64,000 bases of DNA from contig JASCQW010000061.1 of assembly GCA_030264375.1 (NCBI GenBank), positions 69,054,258-69,118,257 on the forward strand, given 5' to 3'. This document shows positions 16,501-33,544 of this stretch, piece after piece. Under the pieces are notes generated by a model that was given only the letters and a program-made list of their open reading frames with translations, was not told where the DNA came from and did not search any database. Numbering within the stretch: the first letter of the stretch is position 1; every line of letters begins with the position of its first letter. The DNA is from Carcharhinus longimanus. Taxonomy: Eukaryota. A program made the translations under genes and the position numbers.

Positions 16501-19037
16501 GTGGCAGTCCTCTCAAAAGGCAGAGCTCCCAAGTTTGTTCGCACTCAAACAAAGATGGCTTCATTGTCTCACAGACATTTGCATACCCAAGGACTTTCTG
16601 TATAGTGAGGTAACAGGATCCAGATGAGTTGTAGGATGCCCAAAGCTTTGCTTTAAGGATGTTTGCAAACCGACACAAAGGCCCTAGACAGCAATTATCG
16701 CATTGGGAGTTACTAGCCGATGTCAGAGGAAAATTGAGTCACTTCCTGTCAGCTGGCATACAGCTCCGTGATGGCCAGTGCCTATAGCGGCTTGGCAACA
16801 CCTCTCAACCCTGAAAACAACCCACAATAACACTTAATAGCTTCATCTGTGGCACTTGTAGCAGAAACTGCCTCTCGAAGAATGGCCTCTAGTTATCAGC
16901 AAAGGTGCAGCATGTGAAGATCGCCCATCTCAAATGGATTGTTTGTTGCATGGTTCATCATTTTTCGTAGATAGAAAGATGCTAACGGGGGACCAGAAAT
17001 ATTATAAATCAAGCTTAACATATTATTGGCTCTATGTGCATGAAGGGATTTGGATCACTTGATGTGGATCTGGTCAAACAATAATTAATTTTCATGTTAT
17101 GTAACCCAAAATTTGCAGACATCAAGACAACAGTTCTTTGCAGTTTGATACCATTATTGGAGGTCAAACTAATTGATCAAGGGTAGTTATTTAAAAGCAT
17201 TATGAAATTTAAAGAGAGAGGTCGTAATACTTTTTTAGATTAATGTATTTTATCATTAAAATATTGTGAATCAGCAATTAATTCTGTTAGCTATTCTCTA
17301 CATGATGCCACCTCTAAGCAAAAATGAATTTGTCTCATTTCTCTAAAAGTGTCACAATTTCTGCACTATGTGTTAGTTGGCAGTGAGCCAGTAATCTTTC
17401 TGCATCTTCATGCGAATAGAGCCATTATACAATATTTTCTCCAAGTGAACAGAAGTAGCGCATGCTAGCTGTATAAAAACTATACGAAAATATGTAAGCA
17501 ATATACTACAAAGAGAAAGGAGGGAGACAGGAAATAACTTTTAGCTTTGCTTCTGTTATTTTGTCTTGACAAAATTATTTCAAAGTGCTTTTGATGGAGA
17601 GAGACCTGGCAGCTTTCAGTGATGCACCTGAACTTCAGATCACAGCTCAGTTTGGTTTGCAGGATCATGTTAGAGAATCACATGCTGTAGTGGACAGAGA
17701 AGAGACCAGTGACTGCTGCAAGGGAACCTGGTTCACAAGGAACCAGTCGATTCTCTGAGAAGAGTCACCTCCTGCTGCTTGGCACTGAAACAGAACACAG
17801 TCTGAGGGAGATCAGCAACTGTTCTGAGAAAAGTGAAAGGGGAGAGAATGAAGTGGGATAATGGAAAAATCAGTCCTTGATTCAAAAGATGCCAGTTATA
17901 TTTTGCAAGTAGAGACCAACTATGACTATAGAAATAGGAATGTGGACCAGATGAAAGACAGAACAGTTTTTGCTGCCTCTGCAATGAGGGAAGTGGCAAT
18001 GAGCTCCTGGCTGAGACAAAATCAATTGCTTTTGTTGGTGACATTACTGCTACTAGGATGGTGGGATGTGGGAATTTTCCTGAGGCTGAGGGTAAACTGC
18101 TCCTGTCTTTTGTTATGTGGGTAGTGCCATGGGTCACTAGCTCAGAAGAAACCAGCTGCTCCTGTGGTAGCTGGTGTGGAAACTTGACCTGGGAGGCCAC
18201 TCGTACGTGTATCTCAAAAGGGGAAGTGGAGAAGAGCCACAATTCAGACATGAATTACCGACAAGATCATAACCACTGTAAGAATCAGAAACCATTTCCA
18301 TCTGCTTATGCAACAGGTCAGAGTTTGTTGGTGCTTTGATTTTTTTTCTATCAACTTGTAACAGTAGCTGTAGGACAAGTGATTTTTGTGTAATTGGTGG
18401 GCATCTACAGAGTTGAGAATGTTTAACAGGTAGTCTTGGTCTGTGGAGCCAGAAGCATTCTACTTGTTAACTGTTGTATTTAAAAATGATGACCAAAAAA
18501 AAAAAAAATCATACACCCTGGATGTTAAGTCATGACTCCACAGAGCAGAACCCCAGTATAAAAAGATAATACATTAACTCTTTTGCTGACATCAACTAAT
18601 AAACTACCTGAAGTCTATTCCCATTTGGTTTTATCAAAAACATAAAAACAAATTTCAAATTTCATCGAGATACTTTCCAAACCAAAATCTGTTACTCTTA
18701 CAGCATTCACTCAATTTATCTGCAAGTTCTTGTTTCTTTTACACACAGCAAAACCTTTCAAAAAGAGGCTTCATTTCTAAATACTGCTGGAGGACAACAT
18801 GGCTGAAAGCCTGCACACTGGATTAAATAGCAGAAAAGTCAGCAACCACCAAGGATCAAAATCAAAAGAGCAAAGATATGCTCAGTCTGCAAAACGACGA
18901 TAGAAATACATTCATCGGACAAGGTTCGACGCCGATGTCAATCTGTTGTGAGGACAGACTTAAGTCACACTTATGGTGAATGCAATTAATGGGCAAAGCA
19001 GCTTCAGTAGGCAAGTACGTTGCTACTAAGGAGCCTG

Positions 19038-19212
19038 TCACTCTGTTAGCAACTCTTGTAACAAACAAATTCTCCAAGCCTGGCTGAGGGTTCAATTGGC
19101 TGCTGTACTTTTCTTGGCTTGATCTGGTGGAGTTTGTTTGTTGGTTATAATTGTTACCACCCTAAATGTTGACCTTGCACTGTACATCAGCAAACACATG
19201 GATCTTCTGGAC
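19038..19212 (-). pseudogene. Degenerate SRC-1a-like alternative C-terminal coding segment with LxxLL (VQKIHVFADVQCKVNI*GGNNYNQ...//QAWRICLLQELLTE*)
   Basis: Candidate acceptor ttttcaacaag|GTC at 19212. It aligns to the NCOA1 SRC-1a tail 'VQQVQVFADVQCTVNLVGGDPYLNQ...QAQQKSLLQQLLTE*'. There is an in-frame TAG at 19162-19164 and a frameshift near 19085. Confidence 0.75.
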
Positions 19213-19247
19213 CTTGTTGAAAACAGGAGGAATAGCAATCCTGAGGG

Positions 19248-19259
19248 TCAGCAATACTT
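19248..19259 (-). CDS. NCOA2: NCOA2 terminal coding segment KYC-stop (start of the last exon)
   Basis: The minus strand reads tttttcactctgcag|AAG TAT TGC TGA. Human NCOA2 and NCOA3 end in KYC*. Phase 0. Confidence 0.9.
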   Translation of the reverse strand, partial: KYC

Positions 19260-19509
19260 CTGCAGAGTGAAAAATAATACAAAATATGTATTTAGTTAAC
19301 AAAAACATACATAATGCAACATGGTAAATTTAAAACTTATGTGATTTTAATAATAAACACTTCCTTTCTCATTCTTTACCCTCTACATTTCACAGACATA
19401 CTGGTTTCAAGTAGTGTTTTTTTAGAAATGACTAACGTACTTCAGAATGAACTGATCATCCCGGATTCTGGTGCAACAAGTTTAAAAATCAGAACATCCA
19501 AAATGAACA

Positions 19510-20020
19510 TGTGCTCTCATCCAGATTTGGAAAGTTTTACTGATTTTGCTTCTAATTTCCACTTCTCACCTCTACATCGTCCATCTCCGACACTTCCTTT
19601 CTCACTTGATCTCTACATTTCCAGCAATGGATTGACCACCAATATTTATTACAAACCCATTCCATCTCGTACTCCCAGTTTCTTTGCCTCTGTCATATCT
19701 ATTCCAATAATGCCATCTTTGAAAATGGCACTTCTGACACATCTGCCTTTTTCCTTCGAGGTTTTGCCGCTTACTGATGTTGACAAGATACTCACCCAAA
19801 TTCAACCCATTTTCTGCACCTCTGCTCTCACCCCTTCTCCCTTCCACCCAAGATAGGGTCTCCGGCCTCCACATTCAAAGGATCACCTTCCACCATTTCT
19901 GCCAACAAAGTATACTTTCCCCTCACTCCTGGTCTGTGTGGGTTTCTTCTGGGTGTTCCAGAGGGATTGCTCCCTCCGTGACACCCTGGTCCACTCTTCC
20001 ACCATTCCAACTCCTCAACC
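19510..20020 (+). mobile_element. Penelope-like RT fragment in the last intron
   Basis: Remnant 'HPDLESFTDFASNFH...LPFSLDLYISSNGLTTNIYYKP' resembles Penelope RT (LPFLD...TxIYYKP). Confidence 0.65.
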
Positions 20021-20740
20021 CCTTTTGTTTCATAATACATGAATCACTTATAAGATGTTGTCAATATTTTTAACCTTCCACAATCCCTGCCCATTGAACT
20101 AGCTTCGTAATATAGAAAAGTTCCAATTCCAAAAAGTGAGGGCTAGCAGCAGTAGCATAGAAATCAATACAAAAGTACTGCACACAATGTTACACAGTGT
20201 AAATGTATTTTAAAACTATTGCCTTTTAATGAGTTTTTAGAACACAAGAATGGGTTGAGATTTTGCTTAACTAATGGTGAATAATAAAAACAATCTATTG
20301 TCTGTACTAATGGAAACACGCTCAATTATTTATTGCAGCTGGTTATTATTCACTTGTAGTAAATCTTTCCTCGAAGTAACAAAAAACACATTCGCATCGG
20401 CAACAACTATCAAAAACTAACTTTAGTGCTAAATACTTAATGTTATTTGCTGTGTAAGAGCTGGGAGAAGTTACTTATAGAGGAGCAATAAACAGACAGC
20501 ACAATAAAATTATGCCACTTTAACCATATTACAATCATCTACAAAATTCAACTTATCCAATGCTACTTTCGATAACATCCTTCTGGAACAAGATCGTCAT
20601 TTCAAAGGTCCAAAGATGAGATTTTTCTTTACTCAAATCCATCCAGTATCATACTCTCAATCTAAAAGAATTTTTAAAAATGGCTCGCATTCATACAACA
20701 TCGTTCATGATCATTCGCTCTCTCAAAAGGCTTTAAAAGC

Positions 20741-21040
20741 CTAGAAGCCCTACAGTACAGGAGATGGTAATTCGGCCCATCAAATCTGCATCGACTCTTA
20801 CACAGGCTTACCCTGTAACCCCACATATTTACCCCTCTAATCCCTCTAACCTACATGTCTTGAAACATTAAGGGAAATTCGGCATGACCTGCACATCTTT
20901 GGATGTGGGAGAAAACAGAGCACCTGGAGGAAACCCACACAGGCACAAGGAGAACCTGCAAACTCTGCACAGACAGACACCCGAGGCTGGAATTGAACCC
21001 AGGTCCCTGGTGCTGCGAGGCAGCAATGCTAACCACTAAC
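20741..21040 (-). mobile_element. HE1-like SINE
   Basis: Reverse copy of the SINE at 62219-62530 (ggttagcattgctgcctc...gggttcaattccagcc...gggtttcctccaggtgctc). Confidence 0.75.
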
Positions 21041-21229
21041 CAATGAAATACTTTTGAAGCGTGGTCACTTTTGTAATGCAGGAAATCTGGCAGCTAATTT
21101 GTACAGAAGCTCCCACAAAGAGCAATGTAATAGCGATTAAATAATCTGTTTTTCTGATGGTGACTGAGGAAACAATATTGGCCATCTTTTCCCAAAAAAT
21201 ACCCGAGATGCCAGGTAATTAGAACTACA

Positions 21230-21820
21230 GAAAAGTTAAGACACAGAAAGAGGCCATTGAGCCCATTGTGTTTGTGCTGGACAAAAAAGAAAGGAAACTA
21301 ACTGTTCATTTTAATCTGGCTTTCTAGCACCTGGTCCCCTCACCTTTCAGTTTATAATACTTCAGGTGCAGATGCAGGTACTTTGTAATTAAATTGAATG
21401 TTTCAGCTTCAACCAACAACTCAGGCAGTGAATTCCAGTCACACAGCGTCTGCCTGGTGAAAAGGTTTTCTTCATGTCCCCTCTAATCCTTCTATCAATC
21501 ACCTTAAATCTATACCCCTTGATAATTGACCTTGTCACTAAGGGAAATAAGTAATTCCTGTCCACCCTATCTAGATCCCTCATAAATTTGTTTACTTCAA
21601 TTAGGTCATCCCTCAGCTTCCTCTATTCGAAGGAAAACAACCCTAGCCTATCCAATCTTTCCTCATGGCTGCAATTTTCAAGCGCTGGCAACATTCTTGT
21701 TAATTTCCACTGTAGTCTCTGCGTAGCAACTCACCACCTTCCCCTGTGTCACATGGGATTGACTTTTCTGACCAGTCTGCCATGTGGATTTATCTTCTAT
21801 CTGTAAACCCTGTGTTGGGA
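21230..21820 (-). mobile_element. CR1 LINE 3' fragment
   Basis: Remnant 'MRDLDRVDRNYLFPLVTRSIIKGYRFKV...'. Confidence 0.7.
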
Positions 21821-24244
21821 GTATTTGTGCCTAAACTATGGCATCATAGGAAAAACAATGTAGCATTTTTGTTCGTGAAAGAGTGATCAGGTTATCCGAA
21901 TATTACAGAGAAGGCGATTGATTTTTTTGTGAACCAGCTAATGAAACTGAAGATAGTAGCTCAGGGAAAGTATTTCCTAACGGAGAAAATAAAGACATAC
22001 GATTCTGTAAGAAAACATTCTTTGTTGTACAAGAATAAGAGGGTTTTCTAATTGAGATTGATGTTAGCTCTGTAGGCAGTTCAGATCAAATGGACATGTG
22101 AAGTAATTTAACATAGAAAAAAAAGCACAAGAATACATTAAAAATACACTGAATAAGTTTAGATCAAGAATTGCTTAGAAATATGTATTTTAGCAGGGTT
22201 AATGCAGTGACATGTTCAATAACATCGATTTTTAAAATGGTACAAGTGATTGGGCATCTGGAAGGAGAATTAGAGCTTAGATTTGAAATTATATTAGTGA
22301 CATTAAGCATGGCTTGGTTAATTGAATATAAATTGTATCTTTACCCTGAATGTATTCATTATTAATATTACATTGTATTATTTTAGTTTAAAAAGGTCAT
22401 GTTTTTCTTGAGTACCATTTGTGACAGATGCAAAAATCTGAATCTAGTCAGAATCAGGATTGAGAGCAAGGCACCAGTTAACCTCAATATCTGAATCAAA
22501 ATACTAATTCGCAAGTTATCTAAATAACTAACATAGTTTAATCTTTCCTTCCATAAAGTAAAGACTTCACATGGTTCACATCTTGATAAACATGCAGTGA
22601 AATAGCAGTGTCCTTCCAGCTCTGGCACCTGGCATCAATTCCAGTTTGGACCGATGAAATAACTATCATTTTTCTTTGATGGCTCCAAGAGTCTTAAAAT
22701 AAAGGAGAGGACCATTGAAACTCAGTTCCTCTTGGGTAGTTTTAAAGTCACTCCCATTGACCAAAAATGTTCTGAAAAACGAGTTCCCAGCCCATAGCAT
22801 AAATTGGCTCTTTCAGATAGAGCACAAGGATAGCAAGTATGGCAACTAACGAAGTCCTTGCTGGTTGGAATTGAAGTCCACCATTAAAGTGAAAGTAGAG
22901 CAAGTGTTACTCGATCTTGCTGCACTATAGCTAATCTGATACCCAAACTTACTGCAAAAAAGTTCCATTACTCAACACTGGTGTCACCTTTCAGTACCAC
23001 ATATTTCCTCTCCTCCCACCCCCCATCTCTCCTGAAAACATTGTCTCTTTTACATATAGTTCCACAGATTCCATCTCTTTCAAATAATCGTTTTTCATAT
23101 TTGAGCTTAGATACTGAATGTTGGCAGGTAATTCAATTGTGGAAGCCAACATCATGAATAATTGATATTATTTTTACATAATACATGCAATTAATGAATG
23201 AAAATATTATTGCCTCAAGGCTGTCTCGAGCTCCTTTGAATTCAAAATAACTACTTATCTGATCCTCAAAATTAAACATTCCTTCTGCGATACTGTAATG
23301 GAATCAGATTATTTGCAATATTGTGCACAGGGTAGAATGACAGTTTGCTCAGGCTCAAAATTTTAAGTCTTCTGCATTTTCGATAGAATACTTCAATTAT
23401 TCCACTGGAAAGAAAGGCAAACCTCATATACAATCCCTCTCAGAAAACTGTGCACTATAGAGAGTCAGGAGATTCCTTCCCTGCACTACCTCCATCCATA
23501 CCGTCCCCCCATTTGTTATAAGAAAAGCCTTGCTCTGATCTGAATTTTTTGACACCTCCAAAAAAATATCAAGTGCATTATGCAATAGAAAAATAATAAA
23601 GGATTCAAGCTCTGCCAAGTCAGAGCTTGACACAGGTCTTACAAATTTAAATTTTATCATCGTTGTTCTGAGGACATACATCTTCCAGTCAGGTTGGAAC
23701 ATGGTACTGCCAAGTTTGACCTGGAGTTGTTAGCGCAGGTGTTAGCAAAGGCATGCTAGTTGTTCCAATGGATTTCCCTCTACATGTGGGCCCAAGAAGA
23801 GGCAAGTAGAGTGAGTTTAATTTTGATTAGTAGGTTTCTTCATAAAGTATTGTTTCCAAATGAAACAAACATTAATGAAAATGTTTTTAATTCAATGTGT
23901 ATTAAAGCCTCATATCCTGCACACATCAACTATGGATTACCTTCACTGGAAGAAGCAATGCACAGCAGATAAAACATTGATATTGAGACACCCAGAGATC
24001 ACAATTCATGCAGGCTACTGGTTCTTGATGTTAAGAGAAAGCCAAGCGAATTAACTGTTCTGAGGGACACTAAATGTTATGCAGGGCCCACAAATTCATA
24101 CTGCTTTCTCCCAATCTTTAATCAATGGTTCTCTAAGCCTGTTTGATCCTCTATCTAGATAAGAGCAAATAATAATTCTGTGATAGTCCATATCTCAAAG
24201 TTCCTTTGCCACGAGGAAACAGGCTTCAACAATCTTGTACTTCT

Positions 24245-24610
24245 TTTTTTATACACGGAAGATGGGCATCACTGGCTGGCCAGCATTTATTGCCCATCCC
24301 AAATTCTCCTTGGATTGAGTGGCTTACTAGGCCATTTCATAGGCAGTTGAGAGTCAAGTACATTGTTGTGGCCCTGGAGCCAAACCAGATAACGATGGCA
24401 GATTTTGTTCCCTAAAAGGACATTAGCAAACCAGATGGGTTTTTCTGACAATCGACAATGATTTCACAGTCACGAGTAGATTCTTAATTCCAGATTTTGT
24501 TTTTATTGAATTCACATTCCACCATCTGTCATGGTGGGATTCAAACCCAGGTCCCCAAAACATTAGCTGAGTTTCTGGATTAATAGTCAAGCAATAATAG
24601 CCATTGCCCT
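24245..24610 (-). mobile_element. tRNA-derived SINE-like repeat (second copy at ~26370-26660)
   Basis: Shared blocks ggcagattt..ccctaaaggacatt..accaga and attgaatt.a.attccac...ggatt.aacccaggtcc. Confidence 0.55.
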
Positions 24611-25726
24611 CCCCCTTGACCTTTACAATTAAAAAAACACACAACCACAAGGCATCATACTCAAGCAGAAAGAAATCTCCACTGGGAAATGATTCTGCGG
24701 TGTTGATTTGCATTTCTGAAACTCAGGAGCTTACAGTGCCTTTCCCCCCAGAACTCAAACCATTTGGAAACAGATTTTTTTGATGACAGAAGTTTTTAGG
24801 AAAAGCTAAATGTGATCTGAAACTACACTTGTTAGGGCATGGACTGCTCAGAATGTGATTTTAAAAATCAGAACCCTAAAGGTCTGTTTGCAGAAAGATG
24901 ACAGAAATGGCATGTAGACTTTGGATTAATGGAAGATTAATCCATATTTTAAGGGATTCCTTTTAGATAATTCAGTGTTGTATATGATACATTTTTACAA
25001 ACAACATGATGTATTTCATAAATTGGTTTGATATACCAACAACAAGAATGTCTAGATGAGTGCAAGATGAAAAATTTTGACAAAGAAGTCTCTTTTCAGC
25101 AATACTCTGTCCTACCGAATATAGCAAGTTGCTTAAAGGACTATAAATGATGTGATCATCAAGATGGCTCAATCTACACTCTGCTACTTCAGCACACTAG
25201 ATGATGACATGGATTAGGGCTGAAAATTAATTGTGGAGTTGTAAAACTAATTAGTTGTGCACTCCAGCCACATCACTTAATAGAATACACACCTAAACCA
25301 TTCATCCACTTCATAATAAACTCAAAGTGCTCGCTAGAGATCTTACAGCAATATATTAATTACAGTTGGGTCATCATGTCACCGTGTAAAGACGCATCCA
25401 AGGTTTACAACAAATCAGAATATTCAGGCATAATAGAAATGCGTCACCTCCTTAATGTTCATGTTTCTGCAAACCCTACACGGATAAGCTCAGCAGAATA
25501 TAGATAAACAATACTGACATAAATTCTTTTGTGAAACTGCAGGTATTGTAATGTGCAAGGGCTATTGACTGAGTAAGTTACATTGAGCTTTTATTATGGA
25601 ATATTGAGTGTTAATGATATTTTCAGGTTCCAACTCCATGATTTTGCACTATGTTTTTTATAGTGAAGGATGAAAGTATTGCTATGTTGCTGTTTTTTTT
25701 AATTCTTTGTGGGCATCACTGGTAAT

Positions 25727-25995
25727 CATGATGTGGAGATGCCAGTGTTGGACTGGGGTGGGCACAGTAAAAAGTCTCACAACACAAGGATAAAGTCCAA
25801 CAGGTTTATTTGGCACTAGCTTTCAGAGTCTCAGACTCCTTTATCAGGTGAGTGAAGGCTTGTGTTCACAAACAGGTCATATACAGACTCAAACTCAACT
25901 TACAAGATAATGATTGGAAGTCTTTACAGGTAATCAATTCTTAAAGGTACAGACAATGTGAGTGGAGAGAGGGCCAAACACAAGTTGAAGAGATG
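25727..25995. mobile_element. Copy of the same Penelope terminal-repeat family, with a decayed hammerhead core
   Basis: Contains gatgtggagatgccagtgttggactgggg...aagtctcacaacac...ctagctttcagagtctcagactcctttatcaggtgag (minus: CTGATAA-AGGAGTC-TGA-GACTCT-GAAAGCT). Confidence 0.65.
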
Positions 25996-26080
25996 TGTAT
26001 TACTGATATGTGTATCACTGTTAATGCCAGCACTGGTTTCCCATCCCTAATTGTCCTGGAACTGAGTAGCTTTCTAAGTT

Positions 26081-26365
26081 TAAAGCTTATTTATTAGTAT
26101 CGCAAGTAAGCTTACATTAACACTGCAATGAAGTTATTGTGAAAATCCCCTAGTCGCCACACTCTGATGCCTGTTCGGGTACACTGAGGGAGAATTTAGC
26201 ATGGCCAATGCTAACCAGCATATCTTTCAGACTGTGGGAGGAAACAGGAGCATCTGGAAGAAATCCACACAGACACAGGGAGAACACACAGACAGTAACC
26301 CAAGCTGGGAATCGAACCAAGGTTCCTGGTGCTGTGAGGCAGCAGTGCTAACCACTGTGCCACCA
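26081..26365 (-). mobile_element. HE1-related SINE
   Basis: Reverse of the 4602-5155 SINE (ggtggcacagtggttagcactgctgcctcacagc...ggggattttcacaataacttcattgcagtgttaatgtaag). Confidence 0.75.
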
Positions 26366-29300
26366 TGAGGCCATTTCAGAGTTGACCATATTGCTGTGCG
26401 TCAGGAGTCACATGTAGTCCAGAATGGATGAGAATGGCAGATTTCCTTCCCTAAAGGACATTAATGAACCAGATTTTTTTTTTTAAACGACAATCAATGA
26501 TACTTTTAAGGTCACAATTACTAAAACTAGATTTATATTCCAGATTTATTAATTGAATTTAAATTCCACTAACTGCTGCGGTGGTATTTGAACCCATGAC
26601 CCAGGACATTAGCCTGGGCCTCTGAATTACTAGCCCAGTAACATTATCATTGCGACACAATCTATGTTTCAGGTTATTATTGGAAATGAAGAATAGTTAA
26701 AAAAATGTAGGATAAATGGAAGACAAATAAAGATATTCAAGATTTAGTCGAAAACATGAGACTTTATATTGAAGAAATTCATATAAATCTGCAGAGGTTT
26801 AGGAAGAGGATGGGAGTTAAAACAAATTAATATGTTACATATATAGTTCACACTATTCAAAGTGTGAATTATATGTACAGCTACTACTATACTACTTCTC
26901 CCAATCACTTCCTGCTTTGTATGCTGTTGGCTTGCTCGTCTGATATCCCATTTTTGATGAACTGCAATTTCCATCAGCTAAACATTAGGATGACTGAAGC
27001 CACCATCTTCACAGAAATAGTCACTTACCCCAGGCCGAACCAGGCTGCCTGGAACCTAGGGGTGTCCTGAAAACCAACCTCAACTTACCCATTCTACTGT
27101 GACAGAAGTCAGATTGAGCTGCACATAACACAGCATGTGTTGTGCCAGCCTTACTGGCATCACAAATTTAATGACCTGAATGGACTTTTTTGGTGGGAAA
27201 AGAACAAAGGTTGTACTCAGGGCAGCTGCAACCACCTGTATTCTCATGGCGCAACAAATTCCAACCTTTATTTCAAGTTGGGCATGGAGCAGTTACAGGG
27301 GTAAACTTTCAAAGATACAACATTAATAGTCCCCTTAAGACTGAGGGTCATCAATCAGAGGCTGACTTGGTCCATCCCAAGTAATTGTTGGCTAAAAGCA
27401 AGATTGTAACTGTTCCCATGTGTCTAATCTCTATTTCTTAATATTCCACCACCTTTGTGGCAGGTTAGTTATTCAAGCCATAATAATAAACATAGATTCT
27501 TAGTTCCACATTTAAATTTAAAGAGGGTTAAATGAGACTTTAATGGTGAGTCCATAAATGGTGTAATGGAGGTGAAATTTATCTTAACTGGACTGTATGT
27601 ATTCATTCTTTTTTTCACATATTTTCCTCACATATTTTGGACCCTATTGTGTCTCATCAATTTCCTTCCTGTTTCATTCTGCAAATGAAACCTGAAATCT
27701 TTAATTTTTAAACAGGAATAAGAATCCTCTTTGTGGGTTGCAAGACAAGATTTTGGGTTTGCCAGTTGTGACGCAGCAAAGGCAGCTGTGGAGCTCAGGC
27801 TGAATGCTAACAGCTGCGGAGCCCCTTTAAATTCTTATTTTTTTTGATTGATGGACGGGACCTAATGGACATCTTTGAGACCTGTTTGCTGTGCAAAAAA
27901 GACGCAGAAAGGCAGGTGTTTAATCTTTTAAAAAGACATGTCATTTAAACAACTACATTCACTGCTCAGGAGCTAAACAACCCACCTACACTTATTTAGG
28001 AGTCACTTGCAGCTTCTCACATGCTGACGCAGCCCTCCTGTCCTCCCTATCCCACACACCCTGGCCCACATGACACTGAGGAATTAATATGGGATCACAG
28101 CAGGAAAAATATGCTTAGGAAGCACTGCTTATAGGTACTGTGTACCAAAAATCAAAATTTTCAAACACTAGCATCTGAGAGCTTGTGGAGCATAAATTTC
28201 ACCAAAAAAGCTGACAGCATCTATTCCACAACAGTAAAGGCAGGGAAACATGATTCCTGTGGTGCTCAGTGTATCTGAATATTCATCTAATCAAACCTGA
28301 GAGAAGAAACAATATCCCTGGACTGACTTGTCATTAGCAAATTTGTCAGCTGCCATGAAAAGAAATTCTGATTAACAAGCAGTAGGCAGAACTAATGGTG
28401 TAGGAGTTTGATTTTTTTCACCAATGACCAGCCTAATGGCCTACATTTAAACATCGGGCGCCTAATGTACTACTTTCAGACATGTTCGCTGATCTGAAAA
28501 GGATCTTGATACAAAGAAAAAGTGAATCAGGTTGGAAAAGACAATAAGAATGTTTTTCCTCACGTGTTTATAAAACCATTATTACGTAACTGATCCAGTA
28601 AACATCAAGTATTTTTTCTCTTCCGACTCAAGGGAAAATGGGATGGAAATTGTATAAAGCTTATGACTATTTGCGTTGGCATCTATTTCCTTAGTATTGA
28701 TTGCATTAATGTTCCAGAAGGTTACCCTGATGACCTTATTTTAAATTCAGTAGGGCTTGCGGAAGTGCAACTGGTTATGCTGACTAACTTGAAAAGTACA
28801 AAAGCTTTTGTTTCTTTGTTGAAACCATGCCTGCAAAAAGCAATGTACAAATTTCTTCCAACAGAAGCCCATTAACATCCTGCTCTACATGGGAAATCAT
28901 GACCATGGACTAGAGTTGTAAAGCTTGAGCTCTAGCAACTGGAGACACTTCCTGTGCTCATGGCTAGCCAGGATGGGGTGTTGGTACAACATGGACAGTT
29001 TACATCTGAACAAAGCTGAGACCATTGTTCTTGCCGAGAAGTCAATTAATATTGTTGGTGAAGGTTTAAAGGACTTTGGCAAAGAAAAGCAACCAGAAAA
29101 TAGCAGCAGTGAGCAGTAAAATTAGAAATATCCCACAAATCACAGGGACCTGATTGAGGAAAGTAGCACATGTACTGAAGGAAGCATTAAATCTGCATAT
29201 ACACAATATCCAGAGCACAACTAAGATGGTTCGGCAGGCACAAATTGCTGGATGGAATTATGACAGTTAGATTAACTGAGACATGGCTCAAACAAGACCT

Positions 29301-30299
29301 GCAATGGAAAAAGGTGCAAATATCAGCAGCAAGGTTCAATTAACAAACAGAATGATGATGGAAAGTGAAGGAATGAAATGAGAAAGTTAATGGAGGAGGC
29401 TAAAGGCAGAGAAAGGGAGGAGAAAAGATTAGTATGCAATACTAAAACAAACGCCAAAACATTTTATGAATATGCAAGGCAAAAGTTTAGGCATATGCCA
29501 GTTTTGGGGTGTCGGACAATCGATTTGTAATAAGCTTCTTCCTGCAGAGAGACAGTATGCAAATTTTGCGCTGTCTCCTCATTTGAATGATTTTGTCATG
29601 TTGCCCAATGTGACCAAGGGTCTGACAATGTGGGAAACTAACACACATTCCAGCTAGCCTCCAGTTCATACAGGCACTCTGTCCCTCAGAGGGAAGCTGC
29701 ATTCAATTGCAGGAGGCTGATGCTGACTGTCACTGCTATAGTTGTAAAAGAAGCAAATGGAGCACCTGGGCAGAGAGAGGACTGTGGTTTGTGGCTGCAT
29801 TGCTGGAAGTTAAAGGCACAGTTGTTGACAGTAATCACAGACATAATGTAAGCAATGCTACCAAATGGCAATATTAACTCAAGGGGCCGAATGGCTCATT
29901 TCTGCTCCTAATATGCAAGTCATTCTGTATGAGTGTGATGAGCTGGGTTAGATGACCTTTGACATCCAGAACTATCTTGCCAACAGAGGGTGGAATCGAG
30001 CTGGAGTTCTGTTTATTTTGTTCCAAATGGAAGTTTACTGTGAGTGAGCTTTGTGGGGTGAAATTTCCAGTACAGGAGTGGATAATGGACTGTGAATTAG
30101 TAACCTGTTTTACACTGAACATGATTCTCGGGAGTCTTTTCTATTGACTCCAATCCTGTTCTTTTATTTACTTCTCTAATAGCTTACTCTAACTTGATGC
30201 TTTAATGAGATCTTTGGAGGTATTGAAATATGATAAAGTTGCAGTGTGTGGTAGACATTGAAAATGTATTGTAGTGAGGAGCAGCAAAGCCTTCAGGCT

Positions 30300-30860
30300 T
30301 ACTGATCAAGAAAACACAGATACAACTGTAAACCTGTCCTCTATCTATCCCACTAGTTATATCCCCAAAAGACTCCAGTAAATTTGTCAAACAGGATATT
30401 CCTTTTGGTAAAACCATGCTGATTTGTTTTAATCAAATTATGCCTAAGTGCATTGTTAATACTTCCTTTGTAATAGACTCCACCATTTTCCCAACATCTA
30501 ATGTTCATCTAACTGGCTTATAGTTTTCTGTGTCTCTTCTCTCTCCTTTCTTGAAAAGTGGTGTAATATTTGCCATCTTCCAACCCAATGGGCTTGTCTT
30601 TGAATCCAAGGAATTCTGGAAAATCATAGCCAGCACATCCACCATCTCTGCAACTATCTCTTTAAAACCCTTAGGGTGTAGGTCATCAGTTTTAGTCCCT
30701 CAAGTTTCTCCAATGCTTTTTATCTGCTGATACTCACTTTTCAGCCCCTAATTTATTATCTATTTCTGGTTTTCCACTTGACGACAGGCAAAATATTTGT
30801 TCAATGCCTCTGCCATTTCCTTATGAAAATGTTCCCTGTCTCTGCTTCTATAAGAAGTCT
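30300..30860 (-). mobile_element. CR1 RT fragment
   Basis: Remnant 'KGISCLTNLLESFGDITSGIDRG' (CR1 RT motif SCLTNLLEFF). Confidence 0.7.
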
Positions 30861-31564
30861 TACAATTTAAAAAATATTTCTGACAGCAGGCAGAGAGAGA
30901 ATCATGCCCTCTTCTTTGTGCATTTCACTACAAACAGTTAATGTCTTAGTCCAGATCAGTACAGGCAAATTAAAAGAATAGGAACAAAGTGGACAGATAA
31001 GAATCTGGAGCTGAAGATTTATTGCTGATCCATTAAAATTCCGAGTCATAAAATTATATATCCAAATGCCAAATGTCCAGAATTTAAACACAGAAATTTT
31101 AAACCTTTAATGCTAAGTATTGTACATATCCAGTAAAAAAAAGAATGAATTTCCATTTGGCTATTAGAAAGCAGCACAACCTCTGACAATACAATTAAAT
31201 GATTTATAAAAATGTGTTAGCTGTTTTTACAACACAACATTGAAAGATGAGCCAAGAGCACTGCAGCAGCAACTTGTATCTGCAAGAACAGTATCTTCTT
31301 TCAGTGGATTTTGATCGCAATAAGTAGCATTCCAGTTTAATACTTCTGGTTTTTATCCTAGACCGTAAGTACTTGAAATGCTTCCCAATAGATAGTACTT
31401 CAATAAAGCATTTTCACAATAATCTTAAAATTGTACCACCTTCAAGTCTCTAGCCTTTGGTAAGATGCATATGCTTAAATCGTAGGTATTGTTCCAAACA
31501 TTTTACTGCTAATATAACATGTGTTAATTTCAATTACATTCAGAAAATACCGCTTATCTCTTAC

Positions 31565-31763
31565 CTGTTCAGCACCCATAGAGGACAATCCTGATGTAGG
31601 CACAGAGGTCATTGAGGTCATGCTAATCTGCCCTGACATCTGATTCATGTTGCTCATACTGGCAGTATTGGTTGCCATAGAAACACTGATATTCATATTG
31701 TTGCTGTACATGCTGGTGTTTGCCTGTTGTCCAAACTGTGGTGGGGATGGCTGCGAAAACATG
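31565..31763 (-). CDS. NCOA2: NCOA2 coding exon, AD2 region ([32 protein letters not shown]...[11 protein letters not shown])
   Basis: Near-identical to human '[32 protein letters not shown]...[11 protein letters not shown]', which is diagnostic for NCOA2 over NCOA1/3. Acceptor aacacag|C, donor CAG|gtaaga, 199 bp, phase 2->0. Confidence 0.96.
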
Positions 31764-33544
31764 CTGTGTTACAAGAAAAAAAAAATCAACTATTAGATTA
31801 AGCACATTTACCACAAAACATTTTATCACATGGGTCTCATCTGTCAGATATTCTGATTCTTACAATGGATAAGCATAATTATTTTGCAGGCGCATTAATT
31901 GCCACGTTTAAGCCACAATAGTTTTANNNNNNNNNNNNNNNNNNNNNNNNNNNNNNNNNNNNNNNNNNNNNNNNNNNNNNNNNNNNNNNNNNNNNNNNNN
32001 NNNNNNNNNNNNNNNNNNNNNNNNNNTTTTCAGTGCTGAAATGTTTACGTACACTTTTGCACAACTGAAACAAATTATTGCACACTGTTCATTATCCATA
32101 TGCACAAAATCTACAGTCATCTGTATCCCGCCCCATACTAATGCTCGCTCAATAATCACTCTTGTTCTCATTCAACCACACCATTCACTGTGCCTCCATA
32201 TAAAATATTTACGCTCTTTTGTACAGCATTGGTATATATTGCATTTGCTTTGCAGCTTTAACATACACATTGTTATCACAATCCAGTACAGAAGTTTTCT
32301 GAACAATGAAAATCTTATTATGATGGAACATGCAGACAAAGGTTGTATCTTTTGAGATGGATGTTAATGGAAAAGGGCAACCAACCAAGCAAACTAAGAC
32401 TGAAATGGAGAATTGGAAACCATAACTCCCAGCTAAAACTATATAAAAGGAGACAGAGTCATCAGAGCTTTGCAGAAGTTGATGAGTCCAGCGGTACAGT
32501 ACAAGCAGGCTGAAAAAGGGAGGCTAGACCCAGAAGCTGGAAGTAGACAAATATGCTGTTGTTACAGGTGTTTCTGTTATTTGAAGATAACATTGGTAGA
32601 TCTAAGCCATCCAGGTTGATTATAGGAGGTGCTGCAGACATGAGCCACTTTTTGGTGATGACCATATCTGTGGAACTTGGGTTGTAAGTGCTTTTGTAGT
32701 CAGTTGGGGGGATCAGGCTATATCCTAGAAGAGGAGCTGAAATTCTTTGTAAAGAAGAGAGTTTTGAAAGATTTTCTGATTGACTTTGATGACTTCTATG
32801 CTGGGTAGACTCTTAAGCCAATTCATAAAATCTGTCTCAGTTGTATCTGCCATTTAAATATGCAATTTACAGTTTATAACTGAATGTAAACTGCCTGTTA
32901 ATTCATGTTTACATCATGTTGACTTGGGGTTTGAGAGTTAGGTGATTAAGAAGTCTTTGCTTTGACGGATTCTTTTATAGTAAAATTATTTGTTCTAAAC
33001 AGTGGAATCTTCTGGATTTATTCTGTTAGTAAATAACTGGCATTTCAGATTCCTTCTATTTAATTGCCGATCTTTCCCAAGATTGTAATACTGCAGATAC
33101 TACAAGATAATTTTATGTCTACCTTTGGACCAATTCATTTCTGGAGACCCCCTTTCCCACTATAGCAAATACAGCCTGCAGCAAAAACTACCCAAAAAGG
33201 GATACTGACTTTAACAACAGCAATTACAGAACATGTTAGATCAACATTAACGGCTGTTTTCCTTTCTGCAAGATTTAAACAACTCTTCTCCACACAGGCA
33301 CATGATCTAATCCACTGCCAATCATTAAACATATTACTCTTTTTTATTTCTTCAAAAGTCAGCAAAAATGGCCAGGCTGTATTTATTGCCCATTGCAAGG
33401 TGCCCTAAATAAGGTGGCAGACCTTCTTCAAGACTGATGCAGTTACTATGGCTAGGGCCAAGATTATTCTACCCAGCTCCCAAGTGTGTATATAGAATAC
33501 TTTAAAGCTTAAATTCAAAGTTTATGGGAGATAATCAGAAGTAC

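Follow-up and report, generated by a model that had tools for sequence, protein, structure and literature searches.

A broken SRC-1a-like tail exon behind the NCOA2 stop codon of the shark Carcharhinus longimanus

The SRC-1a form of the p160 coactivator NCOA1 ends in a long tail that represses the second activation domain and carries a fourth LxxLL motif, named NR box IV, which to our knowledge is unique to NCOA1. The NCOA1 box peptide is found fused to the mineralocorticoid receptor domain in PDB entries 5l7e, 5mwp and their relatives. More generally, ancestral splice forms can be partitioned between paralogues after genome duplication, with one ancestral gene having two endings and its duplicates keeping different ones. 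The p160 paralogues likely derive from the vertebrate genome duplications (PMC5419745), and the mammalian SRC-1e ending is made by including exon 22, which carries an earlier stop (PMC3551673). SRC-1e endings are seen in 35 proteins, of which the named ones are amniote, and in no shark, coelacanth or lungfish NCOA1 examined; the last intron of C. longimanus NCOA1 is 94 nt long and is without an SRC-1e-type exon.

In NCOA2 of this shark, the stretch behind the stop codon reads as a disrupted version of the SRC-1a tail exon of NCOA1. As in the mammalian SRC-1a/SRC-1e switch, a short and a long C-terminus are set against each other by splicing at the 3' end, but the NCOA2 choice is between two acceptors of one exon whereas SRC-1e uses a stop-bearing cassette exon. 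The NCOA1 switch is therefore not what persists in NCOA2, contrary to a preliminary description of this locus. The arrangement also departs from a simple partition of splice forms: two paralogues retain a readable version of the lost ending, decayed to different degrees, and one half of it may still be expressed.

The window, the whole 64,000-nucleotide stretch of DNA that was analysed (contig C61:69054258-69118257 of a 2.68-Gb assembly), contains ten minus-strand coding exons that map to shark NCOA2 in a tblastn exon map, together with the p160 domains PF08815 and PF07469. The best match is named NCOA2, the exon at 31765-31568 shares 98% identity with the NCOA2 proteins of Scyliorhinus, Carcharodon and Cetorhinus, and the locus is one of three in the genome with PF08815, the others being NCOA3-like on contig C119, where the C-terminus is KYC, and NCOA1-like on C130. 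The gene in the window is shark NCOA2. The CBP-binding exon of NCOA1 is on C130 and the 3' end of NCOA1 is on C99, likely through an assembly split or a misjoin.

Table 1. The 3' end of NCOA2 in the window, with the two acceptors and the parts of the relic listed in the direction of transcription.
Feature	Positions	Strand	Remarks
Last internal coding exon of NCOA2	31565..31764	-	Ends AEQ, phase 0, donor CAG/gtaaga; tblastn, spliced-contig ends 31764/31565
Final NCOA2 intron, 12.3 kb	19260..31564	-	Joint of 31565 to 19259 in 4 of 4 contig sets
Acceptor 1, KYC and TGA, the main C-terminus	19248..19259	-	Also the ending of NCOA3; TGA at 19250-19248
Candidate signals of acceptor 2	19213..19251	-	Branch-point-like CTGAC, pyrimidine tract, AAG; AG at 19214-19213, 47 nt past the KYC acceptor
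16-codon stub VQKIHVFADVQCKVNI and premature TAG (19164-19162)	19162..19212	-	11 of 16 residues as in the shark's own NCOA1 tail; ray isoforms
Untranslated relic: GGNNYNQ block and diverged linker with net +1 shift	19068..19161	-	Comparison with own NCOA1
Putative fossil NR box IV, LLQELLTE (19064-19041), and TGA (19040-19038)	19038..19067	-	Out of frame with the stub
94-nt rescue intron of the preliminary description, unsupported	19080..19173	-	Weak sites; contigs read through in 4 of 4 runs

The two acceptors have identical pyrimidine counts at positions -20 to -5 (13 of 16). The CTGAC of acceptor 2 (19247-19251) overlaps the KYC stop, its A is base 19248, 35 nt before the AG, and it may serve as the branch point. 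The KYC stop thus lies inside this branch-point-like motif, NCOA3 has the same letters, and the short KYC ending may have arisen within the tail exon's own splice signals. From 19212 frame A reads VQKIHVFADVQCKVNI, the TAG and then GGNNYNQ. Beyond the TAG it remains open for 99 codons (18865-19161, minus strand), a frame without a Pfam match; a 32-residue frame searched against the shark's own genome matched only itself.

The resemblance to the NCOA1 tail is significant at the level of the whole genome. The query was the SRC-1a tail of Heterodontus NCOA1, a long tail being the ending of 61 of the 120 NCOA1 proteins in one retrieved set. Against the 2.68-Gb genome it gives two matches among three candidates, the intact NCOA1 on C99 (E 1.6e-23) and the stretch in the window (E 2.2e-4), which is interrupted by one TAG. 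A DNA alignment with the shark's own NCOA1 last exon scores above all dinucleotide shuffles (1000 of 1000 and 2000 of 2000), and when either half of the tail is scored without gaps at the roughly 128,000 six-frame positions of the window, the relic ranks first (63 versus a next best of 28, and 33 versus 28; the last nine codons score 34 versus 22), with both halves correctly ordered and spaced. The N-terminal VQQVQVFADVQC module is identical at 11 of 16 residues, with an HMM domain E of 2.1e-8. The C-terminal half taken by itself falls short of significance in HMM searches (E 13 for a profile of 16 columns, domain E 0.29 for the full one), and its homology rests accordingly on order and spacing. 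In the GGNNYNQ block the NCOA1 residue is kept in six of seven codons; in the NR box seven of eight residues are those of NCOA1, five of these seven codons being silently different, and LLxxLLTE stands directly before a stop (19064-19038), in the DNA only and out of frame. Exon position and phase are the same as in NCOA1, and the GG.NY block and the LLQ.LLTE-stop are alike, but the NCOA2 copy is disrupted by its stop and its net +1 shift, and in the spliced contigs examined it forms part of the 3' UTR. The likeness to the SRC-1a tail claimed in the preliminary description, whose acceptors, TAG, LLQELLTE and stop were all correctly placed on recheck, is thus borne out by the genome search, by the collinear halves and by comparison with shuffled sequence.

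The TAG is at codon 17, the position of Val17 in NCOA1, and the relic measures 175 nt versus 168 nt in NCOA1, so that the length difference is a net +7, or +1 modulo 3. Both of the lesions proposed earlier, the TAG and a 1-nt shift, are real, with the shift refined to this net figure; they are common to relatives, and no single open frame of 52-61 codons connects acceptor and box. By BLOSUM score, placements of the shift from 19146 to 19068 are alike, but a frame-B TGA at 19094-19092 places it within 19091-19068 unless there is a third lesion. The AWRIC read in the earlier description may or may not be the homologous frame.

Splicing was followed in assembled contigs from four of 22 listed sequencing runs (X1, X20, X7 and X12), which come from four organisms and four studies. 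None of the 22 is recorded as RNA, and each of the four used has a contig joined across the 12.3-kb intron. In all four a single contig joins 31565 to 19259 and continues through the relic, so the relic is transcribed as 3' UTR of the KYC form. Among the joints listed for the four contig sets, in which minor forms are dropped, there is none from 31565 to 19212 or to 19079 and none from 19174 to 19079; the first and the last of these are the junctions to which the preliminary description had pointed. By our arithmetic the depth at 31466-31900 is that of the single KYC contig in X1, X20 and X12. X7 has a small, near-equal depth excess at both ends of the last intron (19208-19661 and 31466-31900), which would be either a retained intron or a minor form.

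The 227 NCOA2 proteins retrieved, from clusters of which 15 of 44, 15 of 29 and 15 of 442 listed members were covered, such that isoforms may be missed, include 175 that end in KYC, KFC or KF, 26 that end in the stub and 26 with other endings; none has an LxxLL C-terminus. All 26 stub endings are from batoids (Narcine 14, Amblyraja 4, Mobula hypostoma 3, Pristis 3 and Rhinoraja 2). At least five of eight ray species thus have predicted isoforms in which the orthologous second acceptor is used and the protein ends at a stop identical to that in the window; among those listed, 14 of 15 Narcine isoforms terminate in the stub, as do all six skate isoforms that reach the C-terminus. Both endings are present in Narcine and Pristis, and KYC alone, among the proteins listed, in the rays Mobula birostris, Hypanus and Hemitrygon and in all 11 shark species. 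The ray isoforms are predicted models (for example XP_069777358.1, XP_032875228.1 and XP_051878804.1), and annotation of both endings in one species suggests that they rest on junction reads. Phase-0 splicing of the tail to the upstream coding exon is annotated in these models for five of eight rays and is seen in none of the four shark contig sets. The names of these batoid models do not tie the stub to SRC-1a, and the out-of-frame box is in none of the proteins. The second acceptor therefore likely yields a stub of at most 16 residues, as annotated in rays, and among the readings put forward earlier the truncated 16-residue tail exists as predicted isoforms in five of eight ray species. An intact long-tail isoform finds no counterpart among the 227 proteins or in the contigs, which join only at KYC among the joints listed. 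The suggestion that the NR box is a fossil agrees with its position out of frame with the stub and its absence from all 227 C-termini, and the LxxLL box of NCOA2 is likely no longer translated.

A wider search of the shark NCOA1 tail against 1.84 billion protein representatives gives 25 matches, none of them clearly NCOA2. Three look like unrelated repeat proteins and the others carry the tail, with the long ones and those with upstream exons being NCOA1-like; several are single-exon fragments, and clustering at 50% could hide an NCOA2 isoform. We note a divergent p160 fragment (P0394) with an intact long tail, the upstream exons of which score 52 bits with NCOA1 and 50 bits with NCOA2; it may come from a jawless fish or represent a divergent NCOA1. 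In the ESM Atlas it has only matches below 0.9, to unrelated low-complexity coactivators.

The age of the relic is indicated by its silent differences. In the aligned blocks the residue of the shark's own NCOA1 tail is kept in 24 of 31 codons, of which 14 are silently different; the corresponding figure for a control of two ordinary exon pairs from NCOA1 and NCOA2 is 33 of 51 (Fisher p 0.62). The silent divergence is that of ordinary paralogous exons, so the copy is as old as the paralogues themselves. Differences concentrate in third positions, which account for 10 of the 14 that precede the stop, and the box has CTN/TTR leucine swaps, a pattern which argues that the NCOA2 tail still encoded protein long after the duplication. 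Since ray proteins end at the same residue, the stop would predate the split of sharks and rays. That split occurred roughly 250-300 million years ago.

NCOA3 provides a fainter trace. In its last exon (L006:9657-9890, on C119) the best frameshift-tolerant 16-codon match is exactly 47 nt from the KYC acceptor, with null windows scoring as high in 54 of 20,880 cases. An anchored DNA alignment of the NCOA2 and NCOA3 UTRs is reached by 2-4 of 1000 shuffles and its tail part alone by 7-36 of 2000, although these anchored tests were chosen after the likeness was noticed and a downstream control is also weakly positive (48-215 of 2000). Local DNA alignments past the stop are not significant, being reached by 1627 of 2000 shuffles for NCOA2 and NCOA3 and by 1470 of 2000 for NCOA1 and NCOA3, and the comparisons of NCOA1 with NCOA3 are not significant in the anchored tests either. 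A trace collinear with the tail at the 47-nt spacing is thus probable in NCOA3, not proven. The AG of the second acceptor reads TG in this exon. Because KYC is common to NCOA2 and NCOA3 and the tail to NCOA1 and NCOA2, a single ancestral gene would have had both, whatever the branching order. A switch between a KYC acceptor and a tail acceptor, distinct from that of NCOA1, looks ancestral. The earlier proposal of a switch older than the p160 duplications stands in that the tail would have originated before NCOA1 and NCOA2 separated, and fails in that the NCOA1 switch is not the one retained.

The most likely scenario is that the last exon of the ancestral p160 gene had two acceptors 47 nt apart, one leading to the KYC stop and the other to a long tail with NR box IV. 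Today NCOA1 has the long tail only, NCOA3 has KYC and the faint trace, and NCOA2 has both acceptors, the relic having likely been inherited from that ancestral gene. The NCOA2 tail would have remained under protein constraint long after the duplication, as its codon pattern suggests, until a stop arose before sharks and rays diverged; the shift may be younger. The dead part may have stayed legible through slow change of the 3' UTR rather than through selection on the box, and amniote NCOA1 would likely have re-invented a short form later by means of a cassette exon, SRC-1e. The outcome would be a tail cut to a 16-residue stub and a fossil NR box in elasmobranch NCOA2, and nearly erased in NCOA3. 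We give a probability of roughly 0.78 to this account as a whole, in which an ancestral p160 tail is intact in NCOA1 and broken in the 3' UTR of shark NCOA2, with a box that is likely untranslated.

Two alternatives question the relic itself. That assembly errors mask an intact long tail, as the earlier caution about the TAG and the shift had raised, is next to impossible even with gaps in the assembly and a base, 19069, that differs from all four other organisms. The lists of main-contig differences, which are complete for X20 (6 of 6) and X7 (13 of 13) and partial for X1 (4 of 5) and X12 (13 of 26), leave the TAG untouched in both complete cases. The contig gaps consist solely of deletions, and the bin at 18754-19207 has a mean depth equal to the contig depth in both X1 and X20, so by our arithmetic there is no indel in this bin and the offset of the relic is common to both; the ray proteins, moreover, stop at the identical codon. 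X7 has about two deleted bases somewhere in the same bin. The differences of window bases 19069 and 18795 from all four other organisms reflect either a derived allele or a base-call error. A later copying from NCOA1 within cartilaginous fishes, by gene conversion or ectopic exchange, would explain why the relic and shark NCOA1 share an Asn at tail position 21 and a beta-branched residue at position 16, unlike tetrapod NCOA1. We regard it as very unlikely given a silent divergence equal to that of other paralogous exons, a homologous place after a homologous exon in the same phase, and the collinear trace in NCOA3.

Two further alternatives accept the inherited relic and differ over what is made from it now. 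An intact NR box could still come from a minor splice, either by removal of the 94-nt intron suggested in the preliminary description or by direct joining of 31565 to 19079; both routes are in frame, and the intact LLQELLTE and its stop have no change listed in any of the four runs. The 94-nt intron, however, has a donor with C at +3, where in all ten mapped exons A or G follows the GT closest to the exon end (by eye), and an acceptor with 9 of 16 pyrimidines, three of them T, versus 13 of 16 at acceptors 1 and 2. With no such joint among those listed, no box at any of the 227 NCOA2 C-termini, and loss in either frame of the QQKS that precedes the box in 43-46 of 46 tails, this reading is highly improbable. 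The stub, in turn, could be a selected module, with a live KYC/stub switch in elasmobranch NCOA2 that keeps the opening, best-conserved portion of the SRC-1a tail and omits NR box IV, a reading compatible with the main account that adds a function to it. The stub differs at 2-3 of 16 residues between shark and rays and at 0-2 of 16 among five rays, close to whole-protein divergence (9-11% and 2-9%, respectively), it is the prevalent ending in the Narcine and skate models listed, and the pyrimidine tract of acceptor 2 is full; in NCOA1, tail positions 13-15 are invariant in 46 of 46 distinct tails, positions 1-12 having been set by the pattern with which the tails were picked. Against this, X7 has a Cys to Arg change at 19179, no shark isoform or junction is among those listed, three of eight rays have KYC only, and a slow UTR would give an equal likeness at the protein level. 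The rate of the stub fits coding constraint and a slow UTR equally, and we consider a selected module rather unlikely. A bolder version, in which the three p160 coactivators descend from a two-acceptor ancestor and cartilaginous-fish NCOA2 still runs the switch, the stub being a working module with its own partner, is speculative and rather doubtful.

Turning back to the account of an inherited and decaying tail, variation at the locus gives little sign that the box is under selection. In X7 and X20 together, 3 of the 222 sites at 19038-19259 are variable, as against 13 of 738 sites in the UTR below that interval (p 1.0), a comparison of little power since UTR divergence of the four runs from the window is no more than 0.5-2.8%; one of the three sites, in X7, is that at 19179. 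In simulations of the two post-stop blocks, which were chosen as conserved and have 2 changes in 15 codons, neutral decay fits up to about 0.15-0.2 changes per site and has P 0.015 at 0.3; with the decayed QQKS codons included the fit widens to about 0.3. The legibility of the box thus does not require selection on it, and the recent or ongoing constraint proposed earlier is not borne out.

The relic has apparently been unreported. In a 2026 survey alignment human SRC-2 and SRC-3 end at KYC and the SRC-2 motif table is without LQQLL, and LQELL occurs nowhere in the supplement (PMC13468300, in the parts accessible). Table S6 of the same survey, as far as accessible, gives LQQLL for SRC-3 in three bird rows; these match the motif series and positions of chicken SRC-1 and are taken as mislabelled SRC-1. 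No SRC-1a-like tail in NCOA2 or NCOA3 is reported in the full-text literature searched, which leaves most subscription journals outside, nor in the accessible parts of PMC7314397, PMC13199265, PMC6469829, PMC6469632, PMC13026340 and PMC509409. The locus suggests that NR box IV was already present in the ancestral p160 gene and was lost from NCOA2 and NCOA3, and that mammals came to omit it later and independently through SRC-1e; the intact, truncated and nearly erased stages can be seen side by side in one genome. The ray stub is also a natural deletion that parts the 16 highly conserved residues at the start of the SRC-1a tail from the box, such that separate roles become testable, and if the two-acceptor switch still operates with a working stub the SRC-1a tail would comprise two units, the box that binds receptors and a first element distinct from it. 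Should the box be dead, the consequences for shark biology are probably minor.

A further difference at the 3' end involves a 30-codon penultimate exon that is known from chimaera, gar, sturgeon and mammals. It is absent from the final intron of the window, with no HMM match (positive controls E 4.5e-21 and 3.5e-11), and from all elasmobranch NCOA2 and all shark NCOA1 proteins examined, and is present in chimaera NCOA2, where it is alternatively spliced, and in NCOA1 of coelacanth and lungfish. Its loss is parallel in two paralogues. The last intron also contains high-copy repeats at 20570-21023, 24202-24655 and 25564-26471, with depths from thousands to more than 100,000. Downstream of the relic, the X1 and X12 contigs continue about 4.7 kb beyond 18300, which suggests an NCOA2 3' UTR longer than 5 kb, and poly(A) signals are present in the window at 16384-15252.
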